Numbered from the stretch's first letter, positions 13,618 through 46,748 are shown. The stretch: 64,000 nt of DNA from Bacteroidota bacterium (GCA_039111535.1 JBCCIM010000001.1:25959-89958), one strand, 5' to 3'. Made by a program: numbers and translations. The notes: generated by a model not told the origin, from the letters alone.

Positions 13618-13752
13618 AATCAGAAAGTCCTGGCACTCAGATGGTCGATTTCAACAGGCCGTTTACAGATGGATCGATGTGAATCGGCCTCTTAAAAGGA
13701 TCGGCTGAGGTACCCGGATCTATAGCCCTGTACCATAGGAATTCGCCCTCCC

Positions 13753-15132: not shown

Positions 15133-15155
15133 ACGCGTTTGGGTTTGTCCGCTGT

Positions 15156-30334: not shown

Positions 30335-30465
30335 AATCCCGTTTGTTTTCGCTGGTTTGTTTTCGCTTTCTTTATTACCGGCAGCCAGGTCGCACTATCT
30401 ACACAACCACATCACAATACAGTTGAATAAAGACCTGCGATACCCTTTTAAATGAACGATACACC

Positions 30466-31599
30466 ATGAAATGGTTTCTAAGGGCAATTGCTTTTGCGCT
30501 TTTCCTCATTGTTGTACTCGCCATCCTGCTGCGCGTCCGCTACGGCGGTGGCGAATACTACCCCGATCTGAGTACTCCACCGCTTTGGGGTCCAGATTCT
30601 CTTGAGGTTGCTGCCACACTCGAACAACCGCCAGGTAACCTCGCGGTCTCTGCAGATAACCGGCTGTTTTTCAACTACCACCCCGAGTCCAAACCCGTCG
30701 GAGGTAGCACAGTGTTTGAATGGGTAGACGGCGCCCCGGTACCCTACCCGAGTCAGGATTTTCAATCGAACTTCATAGCCGTGCTTGGCATGTTCATCGA
30801 CCAGCAAAACCGGTTGTGGACCCTCGACACAGGTAACCAGGGTCTGGAGCCAGTCCGCCTGTTGGCGTTCGATCTGCACACCAACGCCGTCGTTCACGAC
30901 CACACCTTCCCCAAAGATATTGCGGAGTCGCTTTCTTTTATGAATGACTTGCAGGTCTCTTCAGATGGTCAAACAATTTACATTGCTGATGTGAGTTTCT
31001 GGCGACAAAATCCGGCCCTGGTGGTCTATGACATAGAAAGCAAGGAAGCCCGCCGGCTTCTCGAAGGCCACGAATCGGTAGTCGCGCAAGACTGGATTGT
31101 GCGCACTGATATCAAAGACATGGTGTTTGTTGGCGGCCTCGTTGCACTTAAGCCCGGCGTCGATGGCCTGGCTCTCAGCAAAGACGACGCGTGGTTGTAC
31201 TACGGCGCCATGACACACGACGGCCTGTACCGGGTACGCACTGCCGACTTGCTCGATCAAACCCTCGATGCAGCAACGTTGGGGAGCCGAGTGGAACGCG
31301 TGGGTACCAAGCCCCTCAACGATGGCCTTACCATTGACGTTGACAATAATGTGTACATCACAGCCGTTGAACACAATGGGGTCATTCGCATGAACCCCGA
31401 CGGCAACCTCGAGTCCCTGATTGACGACGATCGCGTACGTTGGGCTGACGGGATCAGTTATGGCGGGGATGGATACATATACTTTACCGACAGCGCAATC
31501 CCCGACCTGATGCTGCAATCCAGGGCACACATTGATGCGCGGGCGCCGTTTTACATCTATCGGTTCCGGGCTGATGTGGAAGGAGTGCCGGGAGGGTAG
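30466..31599 (+). CDS. MRJP/yellow-family beta-propeller protein
   Basis: N-terminal TM/signal segment. DQQNRLWTLDTG and DGLALSKDDAWLYYGAMTHDGLYRV match major royal jelly/yellow (PF03022-like) signatures. Confidence 0.65.
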   Translation: MKWFLRAIAFALFLIVVLAILLRVRYGGGEYYPDLSTPPLWGPDSLEVAATLEQPPGNLAVSADNRLFFNYHPESKPVGGSTVFEWVDGAPVPYPSQDFQSNFIAVLGMFIDQQNRLWTLDTGNQGLEPVRLLAFDLHTNAVVHDHTFPKDIAESLSFMNDLQVSSDGQTIYIADVSFWRQNPALVVYDIESKEARRLLEGHESVVAQDWIVRTDIKDMVFVGGLVALKPGVDGLALSKDDAWLYYGAMTHDGLYRVRTADLLDQTLDAATLGSRVERVGTKPLNDGLTIDVDNNVYITAVEHNGVIRMNPDGNLESLIDDDRVRWADGISYGGDGYIYFTDSAIPDLMLQSRAHIDARAPFYIYRFRADVEGVPGG

Positions 31600-31661
31600 A
31601 TGAATGCCGATTGTCGAATGCCGATTGTCGAGTGGTTGTTGGTTAACGCAGTACCATCTCC

Positions 31662-31694
31662 ACACGTCATGCCGGACTTGATCCGGTATCCAGA
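31662..31694 (+). repeat. REP-like hairpin element, intergenic copy
   Basis: ACACGTCATGCCGGACTTGATCCGGTATCCAGA (CCGGA/TCCGG stem). Identical over 33 nt to the in-CDS copies at 38362 and 40652. Confidence 0.9.
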
Positions 31695-31743
31695 TAGGAT
31701 TGCCGCGTTTCGAGTGGGTGAGGAATGGTACCATTCTTCGCCG

Positions 31744-31774
31744 ATGTCATCCTGAGCCGTGCGAAGGATCTCTG
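31744..31774 (+). repeat. GTCATCCTGAGC-family REP, copy A
   Basis: ATGTCATCCTGAGCCGTGCGAAGGATCTCTG, 31 nt identical to 31842-31872. Confidence 0.9.
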
Positions 31775-31841
31775 CGGGACTTGCAGGCCCTTGATTGCTG
31801 AATGCGGATTGGTGATTGCAGAATGTTGATCTGTTTCAACC

Positions 31842-31872
31842 ATGTCATCCTGAGCCGTGCGAAGGATCTCTG
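31842..31872 (+). repeat. GTCATCCTGAGC-family REP, copy B
   Basis: 31-nt direct repeat of 31744-31774, 98 nt downstream. Confidence 0.9.
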
Positions 31873-31989
31873 GCAGCATGGCACATGTATCCTGGGGAAG
31901 CGCGTCGAACAATTATACATCAACTAACTGCAACAACACGAATCGAAATCCCGAAAAAACGAGAGCACATAATCACGAGTACCTCGATC

Positions 31990-32571
31990 ATGAACAGAAT
32001 GAAAACTACTTCTTGTTTGGCACTGCTTGCTTTGTTGTTTATCGCCATCCCCGTGAGCGCGCAGGAGGTTGATTTTGATGTGCCGACTGAAATCAACATT
32101 ATCCAGGGCCGGCTTTCGGTAGTCTTTAATGAAGGCATCGGCGCGGCAGATGCAGAGGTGTTAATGAAGAGCCTGGGCTACCCCATCTTACAAAAACACT
32201 TTTATGAATGGACTTCGCGGGCACACGCAGACCAAATGCTTACCGAAGAAGAGGTGCGGGATATCAAAGCACAAGCCGGTGTGGTGAATGTATCCCAAAC
32301 GGCCCTCGACAATGTACATTCAACAAACGCACCCGACGATTCTGGCTCCCTCGGCTACCTGGTGATTGTTACTTTTGCAAGCCACATTACGCGCCAAGCA
32401 GCAGCCGATATCCTCGAGCCGTTTTCAGCATTCGATTTCACCGCTGTTGCCTCACCGCCAAACGAAGTGATTATCGAGGTGGGCGACAAAGATGATGTAG
32501 CCATGGCTGTGCTGCAAAACCAGGAGCAAGTGCGGTGGGTGACTTACGTGGGTATCGGAAGCGGCGGCTAA
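31990..32571 (+). CDS. Hypothetical secreted protein
   Basis: Start chosen at MNRMKTTSCLALLALLFIAIPVSAQE (signal peptide). The longer ORF from 31816 would read through REP repeats. No domain recognised. Confidence 0.65.
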   Translation: MNRMKTTSCLALLALLFIAIPVSAQEVDFDVPTEINIIQGRLSVVFNEGIGAADAEVLMKSLGYPILQKHFYEWTSRAHADQMLTEEEVRDIKAQAGVVNVSQTALDNVHSTNAPDDSGSLGYLVIVTFASHITRQAAADILEPFSAFDFTAVASPPNEVIIEVGDKDDVAMAVLQNQEQVRWVTYVGIGSGG

Positions 32572-32581
32572 ATATATTCAC

Positions 32582-35473
32582 CTAGACGCCGGCGCACTGA
32601 GTACGTAACTGTTGTACACCGGCAAGTTTCGGGTGTGAGGTGGACAGGTACCGATAGATGCTGGTTGCTTCATCAAGGAGCTTCAATGCCTCCGCACATT
32701 GCCTTTGCGTAACGCGCAATGTACCAATTCCGGTTAAGGTTCGGGCCAGCGTTGAATTTGTTGAGGCCAGCTTTTCGCGCTGTAGTTCGAGTGCAAGAAG
32801 ATACAACGAGTCGGCTGCGGGTGCGTCCCCTAATGCGTCCTGAATACTGGCATGTACAGCCCAGGCAGCCCCCCAACGTGGGTGCCCGGTATCAAGTCCT
32901 ATTTCATAGGCGTTTAGTGCTTTGTTAGAAAACGCAAGCGCTTCATCAGGCTGATTTCTCGCTAATAAAATACGCGCCTTCCAGCTGAAACTTGCGGCTG
33001 TTGAACGATGCTCGTTCCCGACCAGCTTCATCAACATTGCAGTCGCACGATCCGAATACGCAAGCGCCAATTCTGTTTTTCCTTGCTCGAGAAGCGCCTG
33101 ACCTAGATAATCCAGGTTAAGGGCAATATAGACGTGTTCTTCGCCAAGCGTTTTTCTATCGATTTCCATCACACTCCGATACATGCGCTCCGCCCCCGCA
33201 TAATCGCCGTATACCATACGCAGTCGGGCCATGTTGTACATGGTACTGCCTACACGGGAGTCCACCTCGCCAAAGATTACTTTTTGGATTTCCAAAGCCG
33301 TTGCAAACAACGAATCTGCCTCCAGATAGGCCCCCAGCGATTGTTTAGCAACCGCTTTGCGTACCATTACAGAAGCCGATTCGGCATGATTAAAACCATA
33401 ATTATGGATATAGACCTCTAGCGCCTCGCCAAAGAGCGAGTCAGCAATTTCATATTCAGCCTGATCGAGTTTTTGTGCGCCCAGATTGGCGAGACTGAGC
33501 GCAAAGTGTGGATGTTGCTCCCCGAGCGTAACGCGCCGACTTTCTAACACTTCGGTATACAGCGACTCAGCTAGTTGAACATTATCGGTGGCTGAGTACA
33601 TGGTGGCCAGGTTGTTCTGCAAAGTCAGTACGTCGGAATGATTCGGATCATCATATTCCTCATCATAAATGGCCAGGGCTTCATTGTAGTACGATATGGC
33701 AGTATCGTATGCTGCTCGGTCATTATGAAGGATCCCTAAACCAAGCGCGCTTTCTGCCACATCCAGATGTTTTGGTCCAAACAGCCGAACCCGCATATCG
33801 TAAGATCGGCGATACAAAGAATCAGCTTCGTCAAATTCCTCTGTAAGTCGCTTCAGCCAGGCAAGGTTGTACAAACTTGTGGCAATATCGGGATGATCAG
33901 GGCCATTCACTTCCTCGCGGACCTTTAACGCCTGAAACAGTAGCGAATCTGCTTTTTCAAAACTGCCTAATTCTCTATAAACCCTTCCCAAGGTGGCCAA
34001 CATTTCACCCTTTACCTCTGGTTGATCCTGCAGCTCCTCATTGATGCGCCCTACGCCCTGATCGAGTAATTCTCGAACCTGTATGGAATCACCTTGCGCC
34101 TGTAACATGGGGTTAGATGCTTCAAACAAGCTGATGGTGAACTCCTTTACACGGTCTGCTTTTGCCGCTTCGCTGGCAGCTTCTCTCGCCTGCCACAGGG
34201 TAGTAAACAAGCCGGCAAAAAGGCTCATTACCAACAGTGATGCCAACGCCACAGCACTCCGATGCCGGCGCACAAACTTACCTGCCCGGTACCCAAACGT
34301 ATCCGAACGGGCAAGCACGGGTAACCCTTCGAGGTGACGCCGAATATCTTCAAAAAATGCCTCCGCTGATGCATAGCGGCGATCGGGCTCTTTGCGCAGG
34401 GCCTTGAGCACAATCGTATCCAGGTCGCCGGCCAACCGCCGCTGCAAACGGTCTGGGTGTGTACTTCGCTGCTGACTCACAGTGACGGGGTCCGTGCCCG
34501 TCTTGTCCTGGACGGCTACAGAAGGCCGGCTTGGTGCTGATGCCGCGATTGCCTCGCTGATGTGTTTGGGTGACGCGTTATCCGCTACAAACGGCCGACG
34601 ACCAACAAGCAGTTCATACAAAACCACGCCCAGCGCATACACATCCGTGGCCGTGGTTACGGGTTCGCCGCTGAATTGCTCGGGTGCAGCGTATTCCGGC
34701 GTCATCGGGGTACTGCCCATCTGAGTTAACGTTTGCCCGGGTGTGGTATCGGGAGTGAGGAGTTTGGCGATCCCGAAGTCGAGCAGCTTGAGCTCGTCAG
34801 CCGAGGTTACAAGCATGTTGGACGGCTTGAGGTCGCGGTGTACCGTCAGATTTTGATGCGCGTACTGCACTGCCTTGCATACGTGCTGAAAAAGCTGGAG
34901 CCGGGCGTCGATATCGAGTGTATGCTCGTTGCAATACTTGATCAGTGACGTGCCGGCAACGTATTCCATAACGATGTAGGGCCGACCGGCTTCGTCTACG
35001 CCGCCATCAAGCAACCGGGAAATGTTGGGGTGCCGCAGCTGTGCAAGGATTTGCCGCTCACGCAAAAACCGCTCGCGCACCTGTGCCGTATCGATGCCCT
35101 GCTTCATGAGCTTGAGTGCTACCTGCTGCTCAAACTGCCCATCGGCCCGTTCAGCAAGGTAGACGACGCCCATGCCACCACGACCAATTTCTCGTATGAG
35201 TTGGTAAGAGCCAACCCGGGTGCCGGCTTCAGCTATGGAGCCCTGATGAGTTTCCTGCAACAGCACGGCGGCATTCGATCCGTCTATAACATCCAGATAA
35301 CTGGCAGCTTTTTCATGAGCCTCGCAGAGTGCTTCTACATGGGCACGCAAGTGGGGCTGCGTTTCACACGCGTTTTCCAAAAAGACAGCGCGTTCCACTC
35401 CAGACAAAGTGATGGCCTCGGCAAACAAGGCTTCGATTTGTTGCCAGTGCTGGCGTTCAAACTCGCTTTTCAT
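32582..35473 (-). CDS. Ser/Thr protein kinase with one TM helix and a large TPR array
   Basis: Hanks motifs GRGGMGVVY, VALK, HRDLKPSN, DFG and APE. TM helix AVALASLLVMSLFAGLFTTLW, followed by ~540 aa of TPR-like repeats. Confidence 0.93.
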   Translation of the reverse strand: MKSEFERQHWQQIEALFAEAITLSGVERAVFLENACETQPHLRAHVEALCEAHEKAASYLDVIDGSNAAVLLQETHQGSIAEAGTRVGSYQLIREIGRGGMGVVYLAERADGQFEQQVALKLMKQGIDTAQVRERFLRERQILAQLRHPNISRLLDGGVDEAGRPYIVMEYVAGTSLIKYCNEHTLDIDARLQLFQHVCKAVQYAHQNLTVHRDLKPSNMLVTSADELKLLDFGIAKLLTPDTTPGQTLTQMGSTPMTPEYAAPEQFSGEPVTTATDVYALGVVLYELLVGRRPFVADNASPKHISEAIAASAPSRPSVAVQDKTGTDPVTVSQQRSTHPDRLQRRLAGDLDTIVLKALRKEPDRRYASAEAFFEDIRRHLEGLPVLARSDTFGYRAGKFVRRHRSAVALASLLVMSLFAGLFTTLWQAREAASEAAKADRVKEFTISLFEASNPMLQAQGDSIQVRELLDQGVGRINEELQDQPEVKGEMLATLGRVYRELGSFEKADSLLFQALKVREEVNGPDHPDIATSLYNLAWLKRLTEEFDEADSLYRRSYDMRVRLFGPKHLDVAESALGLGILHNDRAAYDTAISYYNEALAIYDEEYDDPNHSDVLTLQNNLATMYSATDNVQLAESLYTEVLESRRVTLGEQHPHFALSLANLGAQKLDQAEYEIADSLFGEALEVYIHNYGFNHAESASVMVRKAVAKQSLGAYLEADSLFATALEIQKVIFGEVDSRVGSTMYNMARLRMVYGDYAGAERMYRSVMEIDRKTLGEEHVYIALNLDYLGQALLEQGKTELALAYSDRATAMLMKLVGNEHRSTAASFSWKARILLARNQPDEALAFSNKALNAYEIGLDTGHPRWGAAWAVHASIQDALGDAPAADSLYLLALELQREKLASTNSTLARTLTGIGTLRVTQRQCAEALKLLDEATSIYRYLSTSHPKLAGVQQLRTQCAGV

Positions 35474-35561
35474 AGACGTTATGTGAGATACCTGACAGTC
35501 GACACGTCTTAATCTGCGTTTTTAACAGAAAAAAACTGACAGACAGTAGATGGTACTTGAC

Positions 35562-36131
35562 TTACTGTTCTTCCAACTGGATAAACAACCACGCCTTAGC
35601 CAACTGCCAGTCGCGCAAAGCGGTACGCTCAGAAATTTCCAGCACCTGGGCGATTTCGTCCATTTTCAACCCACCAAAAAACCGGCACTCAACCACTTTC
35701 GCCTGACGCGGACTGCGGTCGGCTAACAATTGCAAGGCTTCATCAAGATCCACGAGATGAGAGGCAAATGCCTCTACCGCGATGTGTTGTTCATCCAGCG
35801 ACAACGCGCGTTCTTTGCCGCCCCGTTTGAGCCGGGTGCGACGGCGCGCGTGGTCTACCAGGATTTGCCGCATAGCCCGGGCAGCAGCACCGAAAAAATA
35901 CGCACGGCCTTTTGCAGTCACCTGGGTTTGATCCACCAGCTTCAGATAAGCTTCGTGTACCAGCGCGGTGGTGTTGAGCGTGTGGTGTTGGCGCTCCTGT
36001 AAGAGGTATTTATGCGCCATACCCCGCAGTTCGTCATACACCGCGCTAACCACGGCATCAGCGTTCACGCTTGCATCCACAGATACGCGATTGAGCAAGA
36101 CGGTCACAGCCTGGGAAGTCGTGCCGGCCAT
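35562..36131 (-). CDS. ECF sigma factor (PF07638/TIGR02999-like)
   Basis: Start chosen at MAGTTSQAVTVLL. HTLNTTALVHEAYLKLVDQ is the signature of this ECF type. Region 4 HTH is MDEIAQVLEISERTALRDWQLAKAWL. Confidence 0.9.
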   Translation of the reverse strand: MAGTTSQAVTVLLNRVSVDASVNADAVVSAVYDELRGMAHKYLLQERQHHTLNTTALVHEAYLKLVDQTQVTAKGRAYFFGAAARAMRQILVDHARRRTRLKRGGKERALSLDEQHIAVEAFASHLVDLDEALQLLADRSPRQAKVVECRFFGGLKMDEIAQVLEISERTALRDWQLAKAWLFIQLEEQ

Positions 36132-36402
36132 TTGTACAGGAGTGGGGTGAAGATAATAATGACAGCGCGCTGCCAAAACAGCATATGTAGTATAGCAACT
36201 TTTAAGGCCAATCTCGACCAAGTGACGCTACCCTCCATTTTCCTCACATCAGGTGGTGTTTAGAAAAAACTGACTGGGCATGGCAGTTTTTCTGAAGGAC
36301 TGTCGCAGGACAAAACACAGGCGCATCGTACAGCTCGTCAGCAGTGCATCTCAGCCTCGGTTACATGCGCCGGCTATTACGCTCACATAAACCCACAACA
36401 CC

Positions 36403-38658
36403 ATGCGAACCACACTTTTCCTCACGCTTCTCTGTTTGCTCGTACAGCCAGTTTTTGGTCAGCAATATGGGCATCACCTGGACTGGCTCAATGCAGTCAC
36501 AGATGACACATTCATCAACGACGTAGCCCTCGACGCAGACGAATTAGTTTATATCGTTGGGTCTGGCCTTGACAATATAGATTTTGACGGACCAACGATA
36601 ACAGGACAGGGCGGAGAGGCTTCCGTCGATGGTGCTACGATGTTCTTTGCTGCCTATTCCCCTGATGGTCAACTGGTCATGTCGCGCATAATCTCAGCCA
36701 GCATTTTTAGCGAAGGATACGGCATAGCCATTGGCAAATCGGGTGATATTTATGTAGCCGGCATCGTGCGGGGTATTGCTGATTTTGATGGCCCCAATAG
36801 TACCGATAAGGGAGGAGAGGTCCTCACCGAAAAACCCGAGCTTTTCATTGCCCGATACACCGCATCCAACAACCTGGTATGGGTAACAACAACAAATACC
36901 TTTGAAGGAGATGGCTTTCAGTATCCGGACGCATCTGACTACGAGGACCGCATCAAACTTGAAGTCAGTCTGCAGGGAAATGTCTACGTGTCCGCTGAGT
37001 ATTTGCAGGAAGGGCCTGTCGACTTTGACGGCCCCCACACTAAAGGACAAGGGGGAGAGATCCATCTGAATATCGATTCATTTGTCGCCAAGTATGACGC
37101 GCAAGGTGCCCTGTTGTGGGTCAATCATATTCTGACTGAGACCGCCTATTCAGGAATTGTTGACCTGGACGTTAATCATAACGATGAGGTCTTCATTGTC
37201 GGAGGCTTTGATGCGCGCATCGATCTGGATGGCCTTGAAACCAATGCGCAGGGAGGCGAACTGATCACGCCCCAGCACAAAATGTTTTTGGCCAAATATG
37301 ATGTGAATGGCATCTTGCAATGGGCAACAACACCAACCGGTGCATCAACAAAAGGATTTGGCGTCGAGATAACGCCTAAAGGGAATATTTATGCCGCCGG
37401 CAATTTTAAAGGCAGCGTAGATTTTGACGGCCCCTTTACAACAGGACAAGGAGGAGAACTGGTATCAACCGGGGCATACAGAGACTATTTTCTTGCCCGG
37501 TATCAACCAAACGGGGTACTGGATTGGGTCAACCTGATCGATACAAAATCCACGTGTTGTGATGAAAGCCGCGGCCCAGATATAGCAACAGGATTTTCCG
37601 GGGTGTACGCGATCGGACAATTTGAGCGTGAAGTTGATTTTGATGGCCCTAAAGCACACGGTGATGGCAGCAGATTTTTTATCCCGGACGCCCAAAGCTC
37701 GTTTATTGCCAAGTACAACCATGCCGGCGACTTCTTATGGGCCAAACCAGGTACAAGTGCCGGCAATTATAGCAGAGCCTCTTCCATTTCGGTGTTTGGG
37801 TCAGATGAGCACATCGCCATGACTGGACATTTTGTAGAAAGCTTCTCATTCGAAGGATCTACGATTACAGGTACACCGGGTGCCCCCCAATTCTGGGATT
37901 ATTTTGTTGCCAAACTCAATCCCAACGTTTTTGGTCAGGCACCACAACCGCCTTATTCAATAAAGCCTTTTACCTTCTTCGAAGCTGAGTCCCACGTCTT
38001 CATCCACCCCGAAGACATCGTTGCCAGCCTGGTTGATTCACAAGGTGATGAGATGCCCGTCGAATCAGCTATCTTCACCGCCGTCACAGCAGACGAAGAA
38101 CTCCAACACGAGTTGCTCATCGACGGCTGCCAGTTCCTCGGCCTGCCGGCTTTGCTTGATGAAGAAACCAACGGCCACGTCTACACCATCCACATGGCAG
38201 CGACCGACCGCTACGGCGTAACCGGTGAATGGCAGGTGCCGGTACACATCATACGCGAAGGCATGGAAGAAGCTGAGCAAGACGAGACTGTGTTTGAGGC
38301 CGTCGTCTGCTCAGAAAACGAAACCGGCCAGGCCCAAAGCAGCAAGGACCAGCTACACCTTACACGTCATGCCGGACTTGATCCGGTATCCAGAAAAGAG
38401 CCAACACTCACCGCCTACCCAAACCCATTCAATCCACAGACAACCCTGTCGCTATCGCTCCCAGTCGCCCAGCACGTCCGCGTCGCAGTCTACGACATGC
38501 TGGGCCGGCAGGTAGCGCTCATCCACGACGGATTGCTGGATGCCAACCAATCCCACAGCTTCACCTTCGATGCCGCGAAGCTCCCAAGCGGCGCTTATCT
38601 GGTGCGGGTGCAGGGTGAGGGCTTTGTCCAGAGCCGGCGCATCAGCCTGGTGAAGTAA
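36403..38658 (+). CDS. T9SS-secreted seven-bladed beta-propeller repeat protein, paralog 1
   Basis: Signal peptide, then seven blades (..VY..G...DFDGP..TGQGGE....F.AKY...G.L.W), an acidic ~115-aa domain, and the YPNPFNPQTT..VAVYDMLGRQV..SGAYLV CTD. Confidence 0.9.
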   Translation: MRTTLFLTLLCLLVQPVFGQQYGHHLDWLNAVTDDTFINDVALDADELVYIVGSGLDNIDFDGPTITGQGGEASVDGATMFFAAYSPDGQLVMSRIISASIFSEGYGIAIGKSGDIYVAGIVRGIADFDGPNSTDKGGEVLTEKPELFIARYTASNNLVWVTTTNTFEGDGFQYPDASDYEDRIKLEVSLQGNVYVSAEYLQEGPVDFDGPHTKGQGGEIHLNIDSFVAKYDAQGALLWVNHILTETAYSGIVDLDVNHNDEVFIVGGFDARIDLDGLETNAQGGELITPQHKMFLAKYDVNGILQWATTPTGASTKGFGVEITPKGNIYAAGNFKGSVDFDGPFTTGQGGELVSTGAYRDYFLARYQPNGVLDWVNLIDTKSTCCDESRGPDIATGFSGVYAIGQFEREVDFDGPKAHGDGSRFFIPDAQSSFIAKYNHAGDFLWAKPGTSAGNYSRASSISVFGSDEHIAMTGHFVESFSFEGSTITGTPGAPQFWDYFVAKLNPNVFGQAPQPPYSIKPFTFFEAESHVFIHPEDIVASLVDSQGDEMPVESAIFTAVTADEELQHELLIDGCQFLGLPALLDEETNGHVYTIHMAATDRYGVTGEWQVPVHIIREGMEEAEQDETVFEAVVCSENETGQAQSSKDQLHLTRHAGLDPVSRKEPTLTAYPNPFNPQTTLSLSLPVAQHVRVAVYDMLGRQVALIHDGLLDANQSHSFTFDAAKLPSGAYLVRVQGEGFVQSRRISLVK

Positions 38659-38712
38659 GCCTCCTCACTCCTAACTCACTACTGAAAACCATACCATCAT
38701 GAAATACCTACG
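37981..38712 (+). repeat. Conserved 3' cassette, copy 1 (C-terminal module + spacer + next start)
   Basis: Aligns by eye at roughly 90% nt identity with 40271-41006 and 42508-43185. Similarity continues through the stop, the spacer and ATGAAATACCTACG. Confidence 0.9.
38362..38394 (+). repeat. REP-like hairpin element embedded in-frame in paralog 1
   Basis: Same 33-mer as the intergenic copy at 31662-31694. It is translated as TRHAGLDPVSR. Confidence 0.9.
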
Positions 38713-40948
38713 CCCTATTCTTGCTACTACTTTACTTTTTGTCCTGGTAGAGTCGGCTACAGCCCAGCAATTTGGTCATCACCTTGATTGGCTTAAAGGG
38801 CCTTTAGATAATGTCACTATTCGCGAGAGTGTCATTGGAATGGATGAATCAGTTTACATATGGGGATCAGGCAAAGGAGCGATTGACCTTGATGGCCCTG
38901 CCAGTTCAGGACAAGGTGGTGAACAGTTCTTAACCGAATGGAAAACCATCTTGGCTAAATATGACAAACATGGAAAATTGACATGGTTCAAGATCATCTA
39001 CCATACGGCTGACTTATGGCATTTAAACGGCGTACACAGTATGGCTATCGGGCCACACGGTGATCTTTATCTCGTTGGAAAAGGAGAGGATTCCTTTGAC
39101 TTTGATGGGCCGAATATAACAGGCCAAGGGGGTGAAATCTACTTTGAAAGGGATGAAATATTCATTGCTAAATACAATGCACAGGGTTGGCTCTCATGGG
39201 TCATACAAACCACATCAACCGAAGGAATTGGCGTCGATAATAGTAAAAACCTAAAAATCCAAACAGGTCCATACGATGACGTCTTTGTTTTCGGAGGACT
39301 GGGAAAAGGTACCGTTGATTTCGATGGCACCACGAAAACCGGCCAGGGAGGTGAATTAACAATTCCAACAGGCGGTTTCTATACATTTCTAGCAAAATAC
39401 AATGGGATTAGCGCACTGCAATGGGTCAAGCGCATTCGAATAAACGATCTCTTTAACTATCAAGAATTAAGCGTTAGCAACAATAATGAACCGTTCATTG
39501 CAAGTAAACAATCAGGACCGATAGACCTGGATGGTCCACACATAACTGGCCAAGGTGGTGAAATGATCTTAGACTACGATCAACTGATATTGGCGAAGTT
39601 TGATACTTATGGCAGTTTTTTGTGGGCCCGAAAAACCGCTTCATCCTCAGGATTTGTTAATGTACTTAGTGTTGACGCAAGTCCAGATGGAGCGGTATAT
39701 GTAGTAGCAGATATCTTAGAATGGATAGATTTTGACGGCCCCTTAACGACCGGCCAAGGCGGTGAAATCCAGGGTGGAGAAGACTTTGCTGACATCTGGA
39801 CCTATTCTATCCTCGCCAGATACGAGGCAGATGGGACGTTCGGTTGGGTTAAGTTAATAAAATTAAATTTGGGTGACAGCATACCATCTATTCAAGCAGG
39901 CAGCTCAGGTGTTTACATAGCAGGGGATTTTCGTGAAACCATGGATCTTGACGGCCCAGATCTAGACCATCCAGGTAGTAGTGCAACCACTAGCATAGGG
40001 ACCTCCAGCGCATTTGTAGCCAAATATCTACACGATGGATCCTTCAATTGGGCCATGGTAGGTTCTGAAATGAGCACCTCCCGTTCGCTGGCGCTTACCG
40101 AACCCACAGAACACCTAGTATACAATGGTATTTTTAAAAACAGCTTCTTGTTTGAAGGATCAACGGTGGGTAGTCAAGACGACAATTGGGAACAGTTTAT
40201 CGCAAAAATAGACCCTACCACATTAGTAGGCCCTGGCCCACCTTACAGCCTTACCCCAATCCCACTCTACGAAGCTGAATCCCACGTCTTCATCCACCCC
40301 GAAGACATCGTTGCCAGCCTGGTTGATTCACAAGGTGATGAGATGCCTGTCGAATCAGCCATCTTCACCGCCGTCACCGCTGACGAAGAACTGGAAGACG
40401 AGCTGCTCATGGATGGCTGCCAGTTCCTCGGCCTGCCGGCTTTGCTTGATGAAGAAACCAACGGCCGCGTCTACACCATCCATATGGCTGTGACTGATCG
40501 CTATGGTGAAATCGGCGAGTGGCAAGTGCCGGTACACATCATACGCGAAGGCATGGAAGAAGCTGAGCAGGACGAGACAGCTTTCGAAGCAGTTGTCTGC
40601 TCAGAAAACGAAACCGGCAAAGCCCAAAGCAAAGACGATCAACTCAACCTTACACGTCATGCCGGACTTGATCCGGTATCCAGAAAAGAGCCAGCGCTCA
40701 CCGCCTACCCGAATCCGTTCAATCCACAGACAACCGTGTCGCTATCGCTCCCATCCACCCAGCACGTCCGCGTGGCGGTCTACGACATGCTCGGCCGGCA
40801 GGTAGCGCTCATCCACAACGGGATGCTGGATGCCAACCAATCCCACAGCTTCACTTTTGATGCCGCAAAGCTCCGAAGCGGCGCTTACCTGGTGCGTGTG
40901 CAAGGTGAGAGCTTTGTCCAGAGCCGGCGCATCAGCCTCGTGAAGTAA
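38699..40948 (+). CDS. T9SS-secreted seven-bladed beta-propeller repeat protein, paralog 2
   Basis: Same architecture as paralog 1. The N-terminal 520 aa are strongly diverged and AT-richer, while the C-terminal 226 aa are nearly identical. Confidence 0.9.
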   Translation: MKYLRPILATTLLFVLVESATAQQFGHHLDWLKGPLDNVTIRESVIGMDESVYIWGSGKGAIDLDGPASSGQGGEQFLTEWKTILAKYDKHGKLTWFKIIYHTADLWHLNGVHSMAIGPHGDLYLVGKGEDSFDFDGPNITGQGGEIYFERDEIFIAKYNAQGWLSWVIQTTSTEGIGVDNSKNLKIQTGPYDDVFVFGGLGKGTVDFDGTTKTGQGGELTIPTGGFYTFLAKYNGISALQWVKRIRINDLFNYQELSVSNNNEPFIASKQSGPIDLDGPHITGQGGEMILDYDQLILAKFDTYGSFLWARKTASSSGFVNVLSVDASPDGAVYVVADILEWIDFDGPLTTGQGGEIQGGEDFADIWTYSILARYEADGTFGWVKLIKLNLGDSIPSIQAGSSGVYIAGDFRETMDLDGPDLDHPGSSATTSIGTSSAFVAKYLHDGSFNWAMVGSEMSTSRSLALTEPTEHLVYNGIFKNSFLFEGSTVGSQDDNWEQFIAKIDPTTLVGPGPPYSLTPIPLYEAESHVFIHPEDIVASLVDSQGDEMPVESAIFTAVTADEELEDELLMDGCQFLGLPALLDEETNGRVYTIHMAVTDRYGEIGEWQVPVHIIREGMEEAEQDETAFEAVVCSENETGKAQSKDDQLNLTRHAGLDPVSRKEPALTAYPNPFNPQTTVSLSLPSTQHVRVAVYDMLGRQVALIHNGMLDANQSHSFTFDAAKLRSGAYLVRVQGESFVQSRRISLVK

Positions 40949-41006
40949 GGCTCCTCACTCCTATCTCCTAACTCACTACTCAAAACACCATCATGAAATA
41001 CCTACG
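40271..41006 (+). repeat. Conserved 3' cassette, copy 2
   Basis: See 37981-38712. The spacer differs by a short indel. Confidence 0.9.
40652..40684 (+). repeat. REP-like hairpin element embedded in-frame in paralog 2
   Basis: Identical 33-mer ACACGTCATGCCGGACTTGATCCGGTATCCAGA. Confidence 0.9.
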
Positions 41007-43185
41007 TCTAGCTCTCACAATCGCCGTACTTTGTATCTGCGTTCCAGCTTCCGCACAATTCCCAACTGAATTACAATGGCTGTATGGCATAACAGGGGAC
41101 TATTACCCCAGGGACATGGTCATTAGTCCTGATGGGGATATTTACACGGTTGGCGTCATTTCTAGCGCGGCCGATTTGAACGGGCCGGCAATACCCGGAG
41201 GTGAAATACAGGTAAAAGGGACGCATCAAATGATCGTCAAATACAGCGCAAGCGGAGATATTCTGTGGACACGGCTGCTCAAGCAAGACGGATCGATTTA
41301 TATCAAGCTTGGCCCTGCGCAAGAAGTGTACTTGACTGGCACAGTTGCCGGCTGGATAGACCTGGATGGCCCCTCCCTCACAGGCCAGGGCGGAGAACGC
41401 TACATGGGCGAATCCCGAGCAATTTTTATCGCGCAGTACACATCAGACAATACATTCAACTGGGTAAAAAAGATAAACGCCCACTCAATTTACGGAAATG
41501 AGTTTGATGTCAGTCCGGATGGCAGCCTGTATCTAAGGGGACATTTCTGGGACGTCGTTGATTTTGACGGGCAGCTGAATACGGGCCAAGGTGGGGAGTT
41601 GTATGCAGATGACATGGGCTATTTTGTAGCCAAGTTTTCATCAAACGGATCATTTTTGTGGACCAAACAGATTGTACCCGAGACCAATGGCAGCTCGCAT
41701 GTAACCAAGGGTATTCGCGCCGGCACGAACAATGAACTCTATATCCTCTACCACTCAAGAGGTTATATAGATCTTGATGGCCCAACAATCACAGACCAGG
41801 GTGGGGAATGGGATGTACCGAGCGATGAGTTACTTCTCGCAAAATACGCTGCAACCGGTAACCTGGAATGGGTCACGCACACCGTGTCACCTAAAGGCAA
41901 TTTCTGGGTCGAAGATTTGGATGTTGGTCCTGATGGATATGTCTATGTTGCCGGGTCCGTACGAGGCCGTATTGATTTTGATGGCCCATACAAAACAGGA
42001 CAGGGCGGAGAGTTTACAGCCGTAGCGTTTAGCGATATGTTTATAGCAAAGTTTACGGCGCACGGAGATTTTGAAAGAGTAATCACAGCCACCGGCCCAG
42101 ACTTTGATCAAGCAAAGGACGTATCCGTAAGTGCCTCAGCTATTTACCTTACCGGATATTTTCAGGAAGCTATCGATTTTGATGGCCCCAACACCCAGGC
42201 GGCAGGTGGTGAAGTCACGGGACAAATACTGCAAAACCTGTTTCTGGTAAGCTATACCCACGACGGTGATTTCTTATGGGTCAAAACTTCAGAGGGAGGG
42301 TTTGGTGAAAATATCGGATACTACCTTGATGCCAACGAAAATGACCAGCTTGCCTTTTATGGTCATGTTATCGACCCGGCTTCTTTTGAAGGTGCTGAAA
42401 TCATAAACACCTTTCAGTTTATCTCCTTGCTCGACAAAGCCGGACTAACAGAATACGAAGAACCCACACCGCCTTATCATATCGACCCGGTTGTGTTTTA
42501 TGAAGTCGAAGCTGAATCCCACGTCTTCATCCACCCCGAAGACATCGTCACCAGTCTGGTTGATTCACAGGGCGGTGAAATGCCCGTCGAGTCCGCCATC
42601 TTCACCGCCGTCACAGCGGACGAGGAGTTGGAAGATGAACTACTCATGGACGGCTGCCAGTTCCTCGGCCTGCCAGCTTTGCTTGATGAAGAAACCAACG
42701 GCCGCGTCTACACCGTCCACATGGCAGCCACCGACCGCTACGGCGTAACTGGTGAATGGCAGGTCCCAGTACACATCATCCGCGAAGGCATGGAAGAAGC
42801 TGAGCAAGACGAGACAGCCTTCGAAGCCGTCGTCTGCTCAGAAAACGAAACCGGCCAGGCCCAAAGCAAAGACGATCAACTCAACCTGACACGTCATGCC
42901 GGACTTGATCCAGTATCCAGAAAAGAGCCGACGCTCACCGCCTACCCAAATCCATTTAACCCGCAGACAACCCTGTCGCTATCGCTCCCAGTCACCCAGC
43001 ACGTCCGCGTCGCCGTCTACGACATGCTCGGCCGGCAGGTAGCGCTCATCCACGACGGATTGCTGTATGCCAACCAATCCCACAGCTTCACCTTCGATGC
43101 CACAAAGCTCCCAAGCGGTGCTTATCTCGTGAGGGCGCAAGGCGAGGGTTTTGTCCAGAGCCGGCGCATTAGCCTGGTGAAGTAG
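40993..43185 (+). CDS. T9SS-secreted seven-bladed beta-propeller repeat protein, paralog 3
   Basis: Same architecture: signal peptide MKYLRLALTIAVLCICVPASAQ, seven blades, conserved cassette and CTD. Confidence 0.9.
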   Translation: MKYLRLALTIAVLCICVPASAQFPTELQWLYGITGDYYPRDMVISPDGDIYTVGVISSAADLNGPAIPGGEIQVKGTHQMIVKYSASGDILWTRLLKQDGSIYIKLGPAQEVYLTGTVAGWIDLDGPSLTGQGGERYMGESRAIFIAQYTSDNTFNWVKKINAHSIYGNEFDVSPDGSLYLRGHFWDVVDFDGQLNTGQGGELYADDMGYFVAKFSSNGSFLWTKQIVPETNGSSHVTKGIRAGTNNELYILYHSRGYIDLDGPTITDQGGEWDVPSDELLLAKYAATGNLEWVTHTVSPKGNFWVEDLDVGPDGYVYVAGSVRGRIDFDGPYKTGQGGEFTAVAFSDMFIAKFTAHGDFERVITATGPDFDQAKDVSVSASAIYLTGYFQEAIDFDGPNTQAAGGEVTGQILQNLFLVSYTHDGDFLWVKTSEGGFGENIGYYLDANENDQLAFYGHVIDPASFEGAEIINTFQFISLLDKAGLTEYEEPTPPYHIDPVVFYEVEAESHVFIHPEDIVTSLVDSQGGEMPVESAIFTAVTADEELEDELLMDGCQFLGLPALLDEETNGRVYTVHMAATDRYGVTGEWQVPVHIIREGMEEAEQDETAFEAVVCSENETGQAQSKDDQLNLTRHAGLDPVSRKEPTLTAYPNPFNPQTTLSLSLPVTQHVRVAVYDMLGRQVALIHDGLLYANQSHSFTFDATKLPSGAYLVRAQGEGFVQSRRISLVK
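42508..43185 (+). repeat. Conserved 3' cassette, copy 3
   Basis: See 37981-38712. Similarity ends at the stop codon, and the downstream sequence is unrelated. Confidence 0.9.
42889..42921 (+). repeat. REP-like hairpin element embedded in-frame in paralog 3
   Basis: Same element with one stem-breaking substitution (TCCAGT instead of TCCGGT). Confidence 0.85.
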
Positions 43186-43268
43186 CGCCGGCAAATCGTA
43201 TCTACAGTTTCTTTAGCGCGGATTCTCTATTTGGGGGCATCTATCCGTTCCACCGAACCTTAAACTCC

Positions 43269-43718
43269 ATGCGATTTCTGTCCATCTTGATTCTAGGCGG
43301 CGTACTCCTGACCGGTCTGCTTTTTTTCCAAATGAAGAAGTCTGAGACTGAAGCTGCCACCCTTGCTAAAGAAGTAGAAATGGAAATGTCAGCCCCCGAT
43401 ATGTCTGAAGCTGTACGCCATGTTGTTGTTTTCAAGTATAAACCCGAAGCCACCGAAGCACAGATCCAGGAAATCACTGATGCTTTTAAAGCACTGGAAG
43501 ACCAGATTCCCGGCATCATTGGTTTTGAGCATGGGGTAAACAACAGCCCGGAAGGGTTGAACCAGGACTTCACCCACGTGTACCTGATGACCTTCGAAAA
43601 CGAAGAAGCCCGCGACACCTACCTGCCCCACCCCAAACATGCCGCCTTTGGCGAGATCCTGATGGGGTCGGGGATTTTTGATGGTGCGTTTGTGGTGGAC
43701 TATACGATTGCAGACTAA
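43269..43718 (+). CDS. Dabb (stress-responsive A/B-barrel) domain protein with N-terminal signal/anchor
   Basis: TM/signal segment MRFLSILILGGVLLTGLLFF, then a Dabb core VRHVVVFKYKPEAT...FTHVYLMTFENEEARDTYLPHPKH. Confidence 0.85.
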   Translation: MRFLSILILGGVLLTGLLFFQMKKSETEAATLAKEVEMEMSAPDMSEAVRHVVVFKYKPEATEAQIQEITDAFKALEDQIPGIIGFEHGVNNSPEGLNQDFTHVYLMTFENEEARDTYLPHPKHAAFGEILMGSGIFDGAFVVDYTIAD

Positions 43719-43721
43719 GGC

Positions 43722-43744
43722 AAACGAACCGGATCGGTTCGTTT
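43722..43744 (+). terminator. Strong hairpin directly after the Dabb stop
   Basis: AAACGAACCG-GAT-CGGTTCGTTT (10-bp stem) followed by ATTGTCGATTTTCG. It is the first convincing hairpin downstream of the paralog array. Confidence 0.6.
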
Positions 43745-43746
43745 AT

Positions 43747-43892
43747 TGTCGATTTTCGATTGCCGAGTGTCGATTTATGTTTTTCATTTAAAACAATCGG
43801 CATTCGGCATTCCTTTCTGGATACCGGATCAAGTCCGGCATGACGTGATAAAGAAGCTATGCGTTAGCCCCAAAGCCAATCGAAAATCGACA
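43747..43892. repeat. MITE-like composite repeat bounded by 16-bp perfect inverted repeats
   Basis: TGTCGATTTTCGATTG (43747-43762) is the exact reverse complement of CAATCGAAAATCGACA (43877-43892). The interior carries a GAATGCCGA module and a REP hairpin copy. Confidence 0.6.
43816..43847 (-). repeat. REP-like hairpin element, intergenic copy in reverse orientation
   Basis: Reverse complement reads CACGTCATGCCGGACTTGATCCGGTATCCAGA. Confidence 0.9.
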
Positions 43893-43914
43893 TTCGAAAA
43901 TCGAAAATCCTCCC

Positions 43915-44343
43915 CTATCGGTCGCTGCGCTGTTTCAGCTTCTTCCTAAAGTCCTTCAGCGCAATGAGGGCAACTCCACTCGTTATTACGGCACCGATGC
44001 CAAATACCCACTTCCCTATGATACCGTTGGTGGTTTGATCGAGGAAAGGCAGGCCCCCAGAGATGTTTTCCGGGTCACCATTGAATGCAATCCAAAAGCC
44101 CATAATGGCCATGGGTATCAAAATCAAAACCGCCATGCCGGCGCGCATGGGAGTGTCCTCATCAAAACCAAGCGCACCGCCACAGGCCATTAACACAAAC
44201 CCCACCAGACCAAGAATCCAGCGGGGTGCATTAAACGAATCAGGGGGAGCTGGAATGAAACCAGCAGCTGTTGCGGTGATAAATGCGCCAAGCAGGATGC
44301 AGAACAAAGCAAGCCAACCCGGCACACGCGTATTTGCCATCAC
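43915..44343 (-). CDS. Hypothetical four-TM membrane protein
   Basis: 142-aa hydrophobic ORF ending with a basic tail. Lies immediately downstream of the helicase gene on the same strand. Confidence 0.65.
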   Translation of the reverse strand: MMANTRVPGWLALFCILLGAFITATAAGFIPAPPDSFNAPRWILGLVGFVLMACGGALGFDEDTPMRAGMAVLILIPMAIMGFWIAFNGDPENISGGLPFLDQTTNGIIGKWVFGIGAVITSGVALIALKDFRKKLKQRSDR

Positions 44344-44361
44344 ATTATTAATGAGCCAGGA

Positions 44362-45954
44362 TTAGCGGTGCCGAGAATGGCGCTGTTTGCTGGAACGCTT
44401 TTTATTTTTATCATTGCGTCCTCCACCTCCCCGGCGATCTTCGGAACGCTTGGGCTCAGGCATCGGCTCGGAAGCCAGTGACTCGTTCCTTTTCTGGTAG
44501 ACTTCATCAACCAGCATGGCCAGCAACTCCGGCTCTTCTTCGACCAGTTCTTCGATCATGCCGACAAACTGGTTCAAGCGTTCGCGCTCCAAATTCGATT
44601 TGTCTCGAAAGCGCTGCTGCAACATCATTGTTGCGTGCTCCGCCATCTTTTCTTCAACCGCTTCTGCGCTCGGAATTTCACACGCTTTGATATCGATGTC
44701 GAACTTCCGGGTAATCCGAAGAAGCAAGGTCTTTTCAGTTGGTGTGGTTAGTACAATGTTGGTCCCGTTTTTACCTGCACGGGCTGTGCGGCCGGCGCGG
44801 TGTACGAAGTACTCCGGATCCTGCGGCACGTCGAACATGAACACGTGGCTCAGGTCAGAAATATCAATGCCGCGCGCTGCAACGTCTGTTGCTACGAGGA
44901 AACGCAGTTCACCTTTCCGGATACGGTCCATCACGCGCTCGCGGGCTTTCTGGTCGAGATCGCCGGAAATTTCGCTGGCGTCGAAACCGTAGTTGCGCAG
45001 AAACTTGGCGAGGTACTCTACATCACGCTTGGTGTTTACAAAGATGATGGCTGACTCGGGGCTTTCCATTTCAAAAAGCTTGACGAGCGTCCGGTCTTTG
45101 TCCATTTGATCAACCTGATAGTACCGGTGATCAATAGCATCTACACTCACCTGGCCAACGCTAAGCGACAGGAAGCCTGGCTCGTTGAGGAATTCCTCTG
45201 CGAGGGTGCGTACGCGCGGCGGCATTGTTGCGCTGAACATGAGCGATTGCCGTTTGCGCGGCAAGAACTTTTTCATTTCGCGCATCGCCGGCAAAAAGCC
45301 CATCGAGAGCATTTCGTCCGCCTCATCAAAAATGAGTGCTTCCAGCTTGTGCAGCGAAAAACTCTTGCGATACAGGTGGTCGATAATACGTCCGGGTGTA
45401 CCAATCACAACGTGTGCGCCTTGCTTGAAGGCAGAGAGTTGGGATTTGTATCGCACCCCGCCATAAACGAGCGCTGCACGTAGGCCATCTTCGGTGGCTT
45501 CGCCGCCGGCCATTTTGGTAAACTCCTCGTGTATTTGCCGGGCCAGTTCGCGGGTCGGGCAAAGTATAAGTGCCTGCGTCTCGGGAATGGTTGGGTCAAT
45601 TTTATCGAAAAGCGGCAGCAGGAAAGCACCCGTTTTACCGCTACCCGTGCGCGACTGTACAATAAGGTCGCGGCCTTCGAGTGCGTAAGGGATTGCTTTT
45701 TCCTGGACCGCCATGAGCGAATCCCATCCCGCGGTATCAACAGCCTTTCGAATGGTTGGCGGTAGTTCATCAATAGTGATATCCGGCAGGGGCGGGTCCG
45801 GTTCACTAAAAGAGGATACAACGCGATCCTGCCGGGCAGTTTGCTGCGCTTTGGCAGTGAGATCAATTACAGTGGTAAACCTTTGTCTACCAGAATCATC
45901 AGATGACATGAAGTTATTAGAACAAAATTCAGTTTTAGAGAGAGATGCCGGCAC
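44362..45954 (-). CDS. DEAD-box ATP-dependent RNA helicase
   Basis: Motif I SRTGSGKT, DEAD (IFDEADEM), SAT, motif VI HRAGRTARAG, and a basic C-terminal tail. An alternative start lies at 45909 (MSSDDSG). Confidence 0.93.
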   Translation of the reverse strand: MPASLSKTEFCSNNFMSSDDSGRQRFTTVIDLTAKAQQTARQDRVVSSFSEPDPPLPDITIDELPPTIRKAVDTAGWDSLMAVQEKAIPYALEGRDLIVQSRTGSGKTGAFLLPLFDKIDPTIPETQALILCPTRELARQIHEEFTKMAGGEATEDGLRAALVYGGVRYKSQLSAFKQGAHVVIGTPGRIIDHLYRKSFSLHKLEALIFDEADEMLSMGFLPAMREMKKFLPRKRQSLMFSATMPPRVRTLAEEFLNEPGFLSLSVGQVSVDAIDHRYYQVDQMDKDRTLVKLFEMESPESAIIFVNTKRDVEYLAKFLRNYGFDASEISGDLDQKARERVMDRIRKGELRFLVATDVAARGIDISDLSHVFMFDVPQDPEYFVHRAGRTARAGKNGTNIVLTTPTEKTLLLRITRKFDIDIKACEIPSAEAVEEKMAEHATMMLQQRFRDKSNLERERLNQFVGMIEELVEEEPELLAMLVDEVYQKRNESLASEPMPEPKRSEDRRGGGGRNDKNKKRSSKQRHSRHR

Positions 45955-45998
45955 TGCAATTATTTATACGATGCAGTGGGAATGCTATGCAGCACATG

Positions 45999-46748
45999 CT
46001 ACATAGCAAGACCTCCATCAACATGGAGCACATGGCCTGTTATGTAGTCAGCAGCGGGAGATGCGAGAAACAGTACACTATTCGCTACATCTTCGGGGGA
46101 TGCCGGACGACCAAGGGGTACAGCCCCTAGCATAGCTTCCTGCGCTTTATCAGAAAGCGCAGCGGTCATGTCCGTTGCAACGTATCCTGGGGCTACAACA
46201 TTCACCGTGACACCACGGCTGCCCAATTCTTTTGCAAGGCTCTTCGAAAATCCAATGATGCCGGCTTTTGATGCCGCATAATTAGCCTGTCCCGGATTGC
46301 CCATTACGCCTACTACTGACGATATATTAATAATTTTACCGCCGCGCTGTTTCATCATCGGGCGATAAGCTGCTTTAGAGAAGTTAAAAACACTTTTAAG
46401 GTTGGTCCCAATTACGGTGTCCCAATCCTCTTCGCTCATGCGGATCATCAAGCCATCACGGGTTACGCCGGCGTTGTTTACGACAACGTCGATGCTTCCC
46501 CAGGTGTCAGTAATCGACTTGATGGTTTCCTGCGCGCCTTCGAAGGAAGCTGCATCTCCCTGGAAGCTCAGTACTTCCGTGCCTTTTGCTTCAAGCTCAG
46601 CTTTGAGTGCTTCAGCAGTTTCGGTAGAAGAGCGGTATGTAAAGGCAACCCGTGCACCTGCTGCTGCAAATGCTTCAACCATTGCGCGGCCAATGCCCCG
46701 CGTTCCTCCAGTTACCAGGGTACTTTTACCCGTTAAATCCAGCTTCAT
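45999..46748 (-). CDS. fabG: 3-oxoacyl-[ACP] reductase FabG
   Basis: SDR motifs TGGTRGIGRA, NNAG and YAASKAG. Lies downstream of fabH. Confidence 0.93.
   Translation of the reverse strand: MKLDLTGKSTLVTGGTRGIGRAMVEAFAAAGARVAFTYRSSTETAEALKAELEAKGTEVLSFQGDAASFEGAQETIKSITDTWGSIDVVVNNAGVTRDGLMIRMSEEDWDTVIGTNLKSVFNFSKAAYRPMMKQRGGKIINISSVVGVMGNPGQANYAASKAGIIGFSKSLAKELGSRGVTVNVVAPGYVATDMTAALSDKAQEAMLGAVPLGRPASPEDVANSVLFLASPAADYITGHVLHVDGGLAM

Follow-up and report, generated by a model that had tools for sequence, protein, structure and literature searches.

In the tufA/tufB pair and in rRNA operons, RecA-dependent short-tract conversion produces mosaic paralogs with low synonymous divergence, and the bacterial concerted evolution of duplicated genes was reportedly reviewed by Santoyo and Romero in 2005. 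In Helicobacter pylori, the 3' segments of babA/babB and homA/homB evolve in concert by intragenomic gene conversion (Pride & Blaser 2002, as discussed in PMC2795765). Among the cargo genes of the type IX secretion system (T9SS), rgpA, kgp and hagA of Porphyromonas gingivalis combine near-identical C-terminal adhesin and C-terminal sorting domain (CTD) modules with different N-terminal parts, and gingipain/adhesin diversity arises by domain rearrangement and recombination (PMC5266723). Here we describe three tandem T9SS cargo genes at positions 36403-43185 of a 64,000-nt stretch of DNA (GCA_039111535.1, JBCCIM010000001.1:25959-89958; hereafter the window) from a metagenome-assembled genome (MAG) of a Bacteroidota bacterium. 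The last 678 nt of the three genes are nearly alike, and the parts before them have diverged almost beyond alignment. We conclude, with a probability of about three in four, that this reflects the concerted evolution of one segment of an old tandem array through patchy gene conversion.

The three genes are co-oriented open reading frames (ORFs) on the plus strand, separated by spacers of 40 nt and 44 nt: paralog 1 (p1, 36403-38658, 751 amino acids (aa), NCBI MEM8483946.1), paralog 2 (p2, 38699-40948, 749 aa, MEM8483947.1) and paralog 3 (p3, 40993-43185, 730 aa, MEM8483948.1). They are exactly the ORFs that an earlier note on this DNA had described. Each is defined by its reading frame, by CTD matches above cut-off and by an exact database match; NCBI annotates MEM8483946-8 as 'T9SS type A sorting domain-containing protein', encoded on a Bacteroidota MAG contig of 92,969 bp, and in a 15-billion-protein collection each forms its own singleton cluster, with one MAG as the source. 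The proteins have a common architecture, in which a signal-peptide-like segment is followed by an SBBP-like propeller head, an Ig-like domain, a linker and a T9SS CTD. The last three elements make up the 225-aa tail, encoded by 678 nt including the stop codon (plus strand; copy 1, 37981-38658; copy 2, 40271-40948; copy 3, 42508-43185).

Aligned without gaps, the tails are identical at 90.3% (1 vs 2), 90.1% (1 vs 3) and 88.5% (2 vs 3) of nucleotides, in agreement with the nine in ten that the earlier note had judged by eye, and at 91-93% of amino acids. A repeat search returns the same three-copy family. The left edge of the tail, at GAAGCTGA, lies at the codon that opens the Ig-like domain and is abrupt, with 30-nt windows going from 16-50% identity on one side to 96-100% on the other. 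On the right, similarity between copies 1 and 2 spans the stop codon, the spacer and then ACCATC followed by ATGAAATACCTACG at the starts of p2 and p3. This boundary repeat (38659-38712, plus strand), which comprises the CT-rich 40-nt spacer and 14 nt at the start of p2, is homologous to 40949-41006 (plus strand), the 44-nt spacer and the corresponding 14 nt of p3, and about 35 of 37 spacer positions match if one duplication of 7 nt and one deletion of 3 nt are taken into account. The alignment confirms the run-on into the next gene that had been claimed for both junctions (1/2 and 2/3). In copy 3, similarity is gone directly after its own TAG stop codon, and the upstream region and 5' end of p1 are unrelated. 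Although the p1 and p2 heads are the closest pair, it is p2 and p3 that have the first 14 nt in common, as would be expected if conversion tracts had crossed the spacer into the following gene.

The heads are far more divergent. Each is about 1.5 kb long (roughly 500 aa) and consists of roughly seven blades of 67-80 aa carrying the motif DFDGP..GQGGE, which at the DNA level forms a 15-copy family of 41 nt in the repeat search. Head 1 (36403-37980, plus strand) has about seven blade repeats of a divergent SBBP-type beta-propeller; head 2 (38699-40270, plus strand) is 39% identical to it in amino acids and 51.5% in nucleotides; and head 3 (40993-42507, plus strand) is 33-34% identical in amino acids to both. 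Across all pairs, identity is 46-52% in nucleotides by codon alignment and 33-39% in amino acids. Between heads, blastn finds only matches of 25-47 nt at the blade motifs, so the earlier claim that the heads cannot be aligned as nucleotides apart from these motifs stands.

The contrast extends to synonymous sites. By the Nei-Gojobori method, the proportion of synonymous differences is 0.78-0.81 between heads, which is saturated, versus 0.27-0.37 between tails. The profile of synonymous divergence (dS), a comparison that the earlier note had proposed, thus sets saturated heads against tails at 0.34-0.51, with a ratio of nonsynonymous to synonymous divergence (dN/dS) in the tails of 0.07-0.14. 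When the comparison is limited to four-fold degenerate positions of codons whose amino acid is unchanged, which makes it independent of the alignment of divergent residues, the proportion of differing sites is 0.67-0.70 for heads and 0.21-0.30 for tails (Fisher test, p between 1e-11 and 7e-8). The common ancestry of the tails is therefore younger than that of the heads. Could all parts of these genes nevertheless be equally old, with selection on protein or nucleotide sequence alone keeping the tails alike? The tail does hold a secretion signal and a structured domain, and its dN/dS is low. However, purifying selection by itself is insufficient, because divergence at synonymous and four-fold sites is three times lower in tails than in heads; moreover, the non-coding spacer is conserved too, and the orthologous tail of a relative is only about 40% identical, compared with 76-90% for neighbouring housekeeping genes. 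We regard this explanation as barely credible.

The relative in question is contig L084 (GCA_024449835.1, JAANTA012619401.1), which has the same downstream gene order of Dabb, DEAD-box helicase, FabG, FabH and PlsX; these neighbours are 76-90% identical in amino acids to those of the window, and their dS is saturated. At the position of p3 lies P0124, the one ortholog available for comparison, in which the contig ends. Its tail, which has two Ig-like domains, is 36-46% identical in amino acids to the tails of the window, and its head, incomplete on this contig, matches p1-p3 at 31-34%, about as well as p1-p3 match one another (33-39%). That its tail has fallen to about 40% identity while the housekeeping neighbours remain at 76-90% implies that the tail is not intrinsically slow to evolve. 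A tail that changes fast between lineages yet is near-uniform among paralogs is the signature of concerted evolution, and points to a recent common ancestry of the three copies. Consistent with this, in a tree of the Ig-like domain the window tails group with 100% support on branches of nearly zero length, and the head tree and the tail tree conflict. The concerted evolution that the earlier note had proposed for the tail is upheld by this divergent syntenic tail together with the low tail dS and the internal mosaic described below. Within L084:1-430 there is also an in-frame stop in the propeller part, upstream of the called 412-aa product of P0124; the gene could be split or a pseudogene, or the stop could stem from a sequencing error.

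The tails are also mosaic, although the signal is moderate. Among their 104 variable sites, the identity of the odd copy out is clustered into patches, given here by their positions in copy 1. Copy 3 stands apart (1=2) at 38022-38115 (tail nt ~41-135), as seen both in site patterns and in sliding identity; copy 2 does so (1=3) at 38188-38240 (tail nt ~207-260), where 12 of 43 nt are different; and at 38289-38356 (tail nt ~308-375) it is copy 1 that departs from the others (2=3), in a patch that includes a compensated pair of 3-nt indels. A runs test on the site patterns gives p=0.003, or p=0.007 with the indel pair counted as two events, and a six-segment chi-square test gives p=0.012. By MaxChi, pair 1-3 has a breakpoint around tail nt 207 (p=0.0014) and pair 2-3 one around nt 308 (p=0.0008). 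These tests, which rest on three sequences from one assembled MAG, return a moderate mosaic signal. The individual patches that it had picked out are recovered as well. At 38200-38250, where p1 and p3 were said to agree against p2, there are 12 p2-specific differences at 38193-38235, 10 of them inside the noted range. The site patterns likewise agree with p2 = p3 against p1 in the QHELLID/EDELLMD and SSKDQLH/SKDDQLN patches, the latter being partly a product of the compensated indel pair.

Because the source is a MAG and the array lies on a single contig, short-read assembly might have switched paths among repeats of about 90% identity, or among co-existing strains, in which case the tails would be similar without being mosaic. 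Path switching with branches of unequal length could indeed yield runs of sites with copy 1, 2 or 3 as the outlier. Against this, the copies differ about every 10 nt and their longest identical runs, of 41-68 nt, are shorter than the usual final k-mers, the three reading frames are intact with a dN/dS of 0.07-0.14, and the combination of young tails and old heads is independent of the patches. An assembly artefact is therefore very unlikely.

The linkers contain a further sign of common tail ancestry. A hairpin element of about 37 nt with an 8-bp stem, (A)CACGTCATGCCGGACTTGATCCGGTATCCAGA.., read in frame as TRHAGLDPVSRK, lies directly upstream of the CTD in all three linkers (38362-38399, 40652-40689 and 42889-42926, plus strand). 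Identical copies are intergenic in the window, at about 31662-31698 (plus) and 43811-43847 (minus), and the element is again intergenic on an unrelated metagenome contig (L083:776-807). It is not in the linkers of the homologs P0123, P0124 and P0125. Its presence in all three linkers of the array, when it is otherwise intergenic and missing from these homologs, makes it a shared derived character that agrees with a common ancestry of the tails. It looks like an insertion of the repetitive extragenic palindrome (REP) or miniature inverted-repeat transposable element (MITE) type that became part of a disordered linker ahead of the homogenisation of the tails. The intergenic copies lie in regions (31600-31860 and 43720-43910) dense in short repeats, which include GTCATCCTGAGCCGTGCGAAGGATCTC twice (at 31746 and 31845) and runs of aatgccgattgtcga and aatcgaaaatcga. 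The gap of about 640 nt between the end of the Dabb gene at 43718 and the DEAD-box helicase gene (44362-45954), in which there is a 142-aa ORF on the minus strand, is about 100 nt in L084.

What are the heads, and where do they come from? In a tree with sampled homologs, the heads of p1-p3 cluster at 85% bootstrap, and those of p1 and p2 at 98.5%, on branches that match interspecies ones in length. As seven-repeat propellers that group in this way, they are homologous paralogs rather than unrelated modules. The PF06739 (SBBP) model does not match them at E<=0.1, and the Pfam threshold for SBBP is not reached; partial matches below threshold are to NF047494 (28-40 bits, cut-off 400) and also to DUF5122. 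Their relatives in a phmmer search of 5.8 billion proteins are overwhelmingly PF06739 proteins, often with a T9SS CTD. The link to PF06739 thus runs indirectly, through relatives, and the heads are probably best named 'SBBP-like, divergent'.

An alternative origin of the contrast is that a fairly recent triplication (dS ~0.4) gave rise to the array, and that its heads subsequently gave way to very divergent alleles of other strains or species. The tail repeats, together with unique upstream DNA for head 1, would have served as homology arms, leaving young tails joined to imported heads. Such replacement would suit the position of heads 2 and 3, each between direct repeats of about 0.7 kb, and the razor-sharp boundary between head and tail, which has no gradient of identity. 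Base composition bears on it too. The GC content at third codon positions (GC3) is 0.40-0.48 in the heads, as against 0.56±0.04 in other genes, with the strongest departure in p2; head 1 is at 0.48 and head 2, at 0.40, is the minimum of the window. However, single-copy homologs show that a low GC3 in the head is typical of the family, the heads cluster together against all sampled homologs, no donor-like heads were found among the 5.8 billion proteins, and the mosaic of the tails requires exchange between tails in any case. Head replacement is thus unlikely.

The tails have a GC3 of 0.64-0.68 (copy 1, 0.68), and single-copy homologs likewise have a higher GC3 in the tail than in the head, with a smaller contrast. 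The composition break that the earlier note had counted by hand in p2, at about 38% versus 54% GC, is reproduced by computation (38.3% in 39361-39480 versus 54.2% in 40271-40390). Since single-copy homologs are also richer in GC3 in their tails, this break argues only weakly that the p2 head was imported horizontally. GC-biased gene conversion as the cause of the high tail GC3 was downgraded because the single-copy homologs show a difference of the same sign.

The earlier note had gone further and likened the locus to a cassette system for variable surface proteins, in which heads are swapped. This part of its proposal was not supported. Programmed variation, that is, the frequent shuffling of heads onto a constant export module, would account for a constant C-terminal module with variable N-terminal parts and for the repeats that flank the heads. 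The products are on the cell surface or secreted, and an adjacent pair of genes for an extracytoplasmic function (ECF) sigma factor and a kinase could steer expression. However, the window holds no silent, truncated, partial or promoterless cassettes and no extra head or tail fragments, all three ORFs being complete, with a start codon, a putative signal peptide and a CTD in each; no recombinase, invertase or reverse transcriptase is encoded in it; and neither inverted repeats nor an invertible promoter were noted. In addition, the repeats are merely 88-90% identical and the heads are homologous, ordinary diverged paralogs. We consider programmed variation highly improbable. Two related candidates were rejected. 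Diversification by a diversity-generating retroelement (DGR) would involve a reverse transcriptase and a template repeat, which are lacking, and the differences between heads include indels and fall on every class of site. In an array of polymorphic toxins or orphan modules, such as Rhs or contact-dependent inhibition (CDI) loci, unrelated variable toxin modules, accompanied by cognate immunity genes, would be joined to a constant region. Here the variable parts are homologous propellers, and the spacers, only 40-44 nt long, contain no small ORF of the immunity type.

It is a long shot, but the direct repeats of about 0.7 kb (tail, spacer and next start) on either side of heads 2 and 3 might still act as homology arms, and within the population these heads could then be swapped, lost or duplicated. 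If so, transformation or unequal crossing-over would move whole heads, and a constant C-terminal export/anchor module would be combined with interchangeable N-terminal binding heads. The locus would then be a T9SS mirror image of loci with a constant N terminus and a variable C terminus, possibly switched on by the ECF sigma/kinase pair.

Under segmental concerted evolution, the history of the array would run as follows. A T9SS cargo gene was triplicated in tandem long ago, after which the heads diverged until their synonymous sites were saturated. The final 678 nt would have been overwritten repeatedly by non-reciprocal homologous recombination among the three copies, presumably gene conversion of the RecA type. 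One or more early events may have homogenised the whole tail, which would explain the single common left end at the head/Ig boundary and the shared linker insertion; later, short tracts of about 50-100 nt between pairs of copies would have left the 1=2, 1=3 and 2=3 patches. Tracts between the first two units would have run over the spacer into the first codons of the next gene. The sharp boundary may have been kept because diverged heads no longer pair, because selection disfavours conversion that enters the heads, or both. With about 10% divergence between tails and identical runs of at most 41-68 nt, differences occurring about every 10 nt, exchange looks old and infrequent and is probably rare now.

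Several points weigh against this history. The first 41 nt are the best-conserved part of the tail, and a passive conversion edge predicts that identity should fall toward the boundary. The mosaic signal is moderate, and without the indel-pair patch, the strongest, the runs test gives p=0.067. Ongoing conversion is doubtful at 10% divergence. The GC3 of the tails fits GC-biased conversion and is suggestive only, as single-copy homologs share the trend. Finally, the locus is known from one MAG, so that the comparison of array with array across genomes is reduced to one ortholog.

The earlier note had taken the tail for a secretion or anchor module, and its CTD bears this out. The T9SS type A sorting domain (38416-38655, 40706-40945 and 42943-43182, plus strand; tail aa 146-225) scores above cut-off in all three proteins, at 35.2-40.2 bits for PF18962 (cut-off 27) and 38.2-41.6 bits for TIGR04183 (cut-off 23); by this sequence match the tail is a predicted export/anchor module. 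Putative signal peptides, read by eye, are MRTTLFLTLLCLLVQPVFG followed by QQ in p1, MKYLRPILATTLLFVLVESATA followed by QQ in p2 and MKYLRLALTIAVLCICVPASA followed by QF in p3. All three would fit the 'Q-rule' of Bacteroidetes, by which Gln directly follows the presumed signal-peptide cleavage site.

The domain in front of the linker (37981-38340, 40271-40630 and 42508-42867, plus strand; tail aa 1 to about 115) is an Ig-like beta-sandwich with two conserved Cys, here called the mid domain. It matches no Pfam or NCBIfam family. Among 1.84 billion representative proteins it has 11 relatives, two of which are p2 and p3. In nearly all of those inspected (P0123-P0126, P0131 and P0133) the domain directly precedes a T9SS CTD; P0123, P0125 and P0133, for which the N-terminal part is covered, have the same type of propeller, and relatives from Neomarinimicrobiota have another N-terminal region. 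An AlphaFold2 (AF2) model built with an alignment of homologs is all-beta in the mid domain, with a predicted local distance difference test (pLDDT) score of 84, and a single-sequence model of the tail is poor there (pLDDT 51). A Foldseek search of the mid-domain model against the PDB gave no significant match and only generic Ig-like folds, and the resemblance to Ig, Rib, cadherin and PKD domains in fold and sequence is weak. We refer to it as an Ig-like spacer domain. Ig-like domains in T9SS cargo usually sit before the CTD, as described for gingipains (PMC5266723). Two tandem mid domains precede the CTD in P0123 (L081) as well as in P0124 (L084). The a and b copies cluster by position across these proteins, at 83% and 93.5% bootstrap, implying that the doubling is old and was not homogenised. 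A scan of GTDB genomes with the tail gave matches that were almost all to the CTD only, the best at 55% aa identity, and no close relative; a scan of JGI metagenomes with a five-sequence mid-domain alignment matched 112 stretches, none of them a relative.

Homogenisation does not extend to the CTDs of the genome at large. The window has a further T9SS cargo gene at 28556-30334 (minus strand), encoding a Big_5 domain, six FG-GAP repeats and a CTD, and this CTD is only about 37% identical to that of the array tails, which confines the effect to the three tandem paralogs. The presence of a second CTD protein also suggests that the T9SS is in use in the host.

Divergent to p1 on the minus strand lie an ECF sigma factor gene (35562-36221, PF07638 match) and a gene for a 963-aa Ser/Thr kinase with many TPR repeats (32582-35473, Pkinase and TPR matches). 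From its position, this pair (32582-36221) is a candidate regulator of the array. With no terminator-like hairpins in the spacers and this divergent pair upstream, it is plausible that p1-p3 form one operon, possibly governed by the pair. Promoter- and terminator-like sites are no more frequent than in shuffled sequence, with none inside the two spacers, and an Rfam scan of 30000-46000 gave no matches. The window also holds core-chromosome genes (dnaA, yidC, mnmE, mnmG, fabG, fabH and plsX). Of these, mnmG (gidA), mnmE, yidC and dnaA lie, with a type II secretion/type IV pilus (T2SS/T4P) ATPase gene, in 7623-17009 and 50675-52249, which places the array near origin-associated genes. The GC-skew profile of the window has no clear switch and gives no replication-origin signal.

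The array offers a clean and quantifiable case of segmental concerted evolution that stops at a domain boundary on one side and crosses a stop codon into the next gene on the other, in a poorly sampled host lineage that is Bacteroidota/Rhodothermota-like. It indicates that a T9SS export module, made of an Ig-like spacer and a CTD, can evolve as a unit decoupled from the cargo domain. This matters for phylogenies of cargo proteins, in which tail and head trees disagree, and for the assembly of such loci in MAGs. The array also adds a rare, uncatalogued family of Ig-like domains, and provides a case of a dispersed intergenic hairpin repeat turned into a protein linker.

A pattern of this sort, with similar tails and divergent heads, recurs in another family at one other locus at least. 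In an Ignavibacteriae MAG (L073:763-5363), two adjacent T9SS cargo genes have BNR/Ycf48-like propeller heads that are about 25-34% identical in amino acids, and share a 446-nt tail of 80% identity made up of the last 250 or so coding nt and about 150-200 nt past the stop codons.

Overall, the array is a clear but ordinary example of gene conversion among bacterial paralogs, and the mechanism is not new. In tufA/tufB and the rRNA operons whole genes are homogenised, whereas here only the 3' 30% is, with a tract that enters the next gene. The pilE/pilS, vlsE and msp2 systems pair one expression site with silent, truncated donors; the array has three complete ORFs. In their plan of propeller and CTD, the proteins agree with the SBBP/T9SS type A proteins (PF06739 plus PF18962) of Bacteroidota, Rhodothermota and Ignavibacteriota, but they fall below the Pfam SBBP threshold, have DFDGP..GQGGE blades and carry the rare extra Ig-like domain. 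The gingipain genes are dispersed, with protease N-terminal parts and shared haemagglutinin/cleaved-adhesin domains, unlike three tandem propeller paralogs with a common Ig-like domain and CTD. H. pylori babA/babB and homA/homB (PMC2795765) are similar in that paralogous genes for surface proteins are homogenised at the 3' end, in the part required to export the protein or insert it into the membrane, while other segments diverge; they differ in their dispersed loci, in conversion shown experimentally and in the switching of adhesin expression. The array, known from sequence alone, combines tandem copies and old-looking exchange with a T9SS CTD in place of an autotransporter-like beta-barrel.

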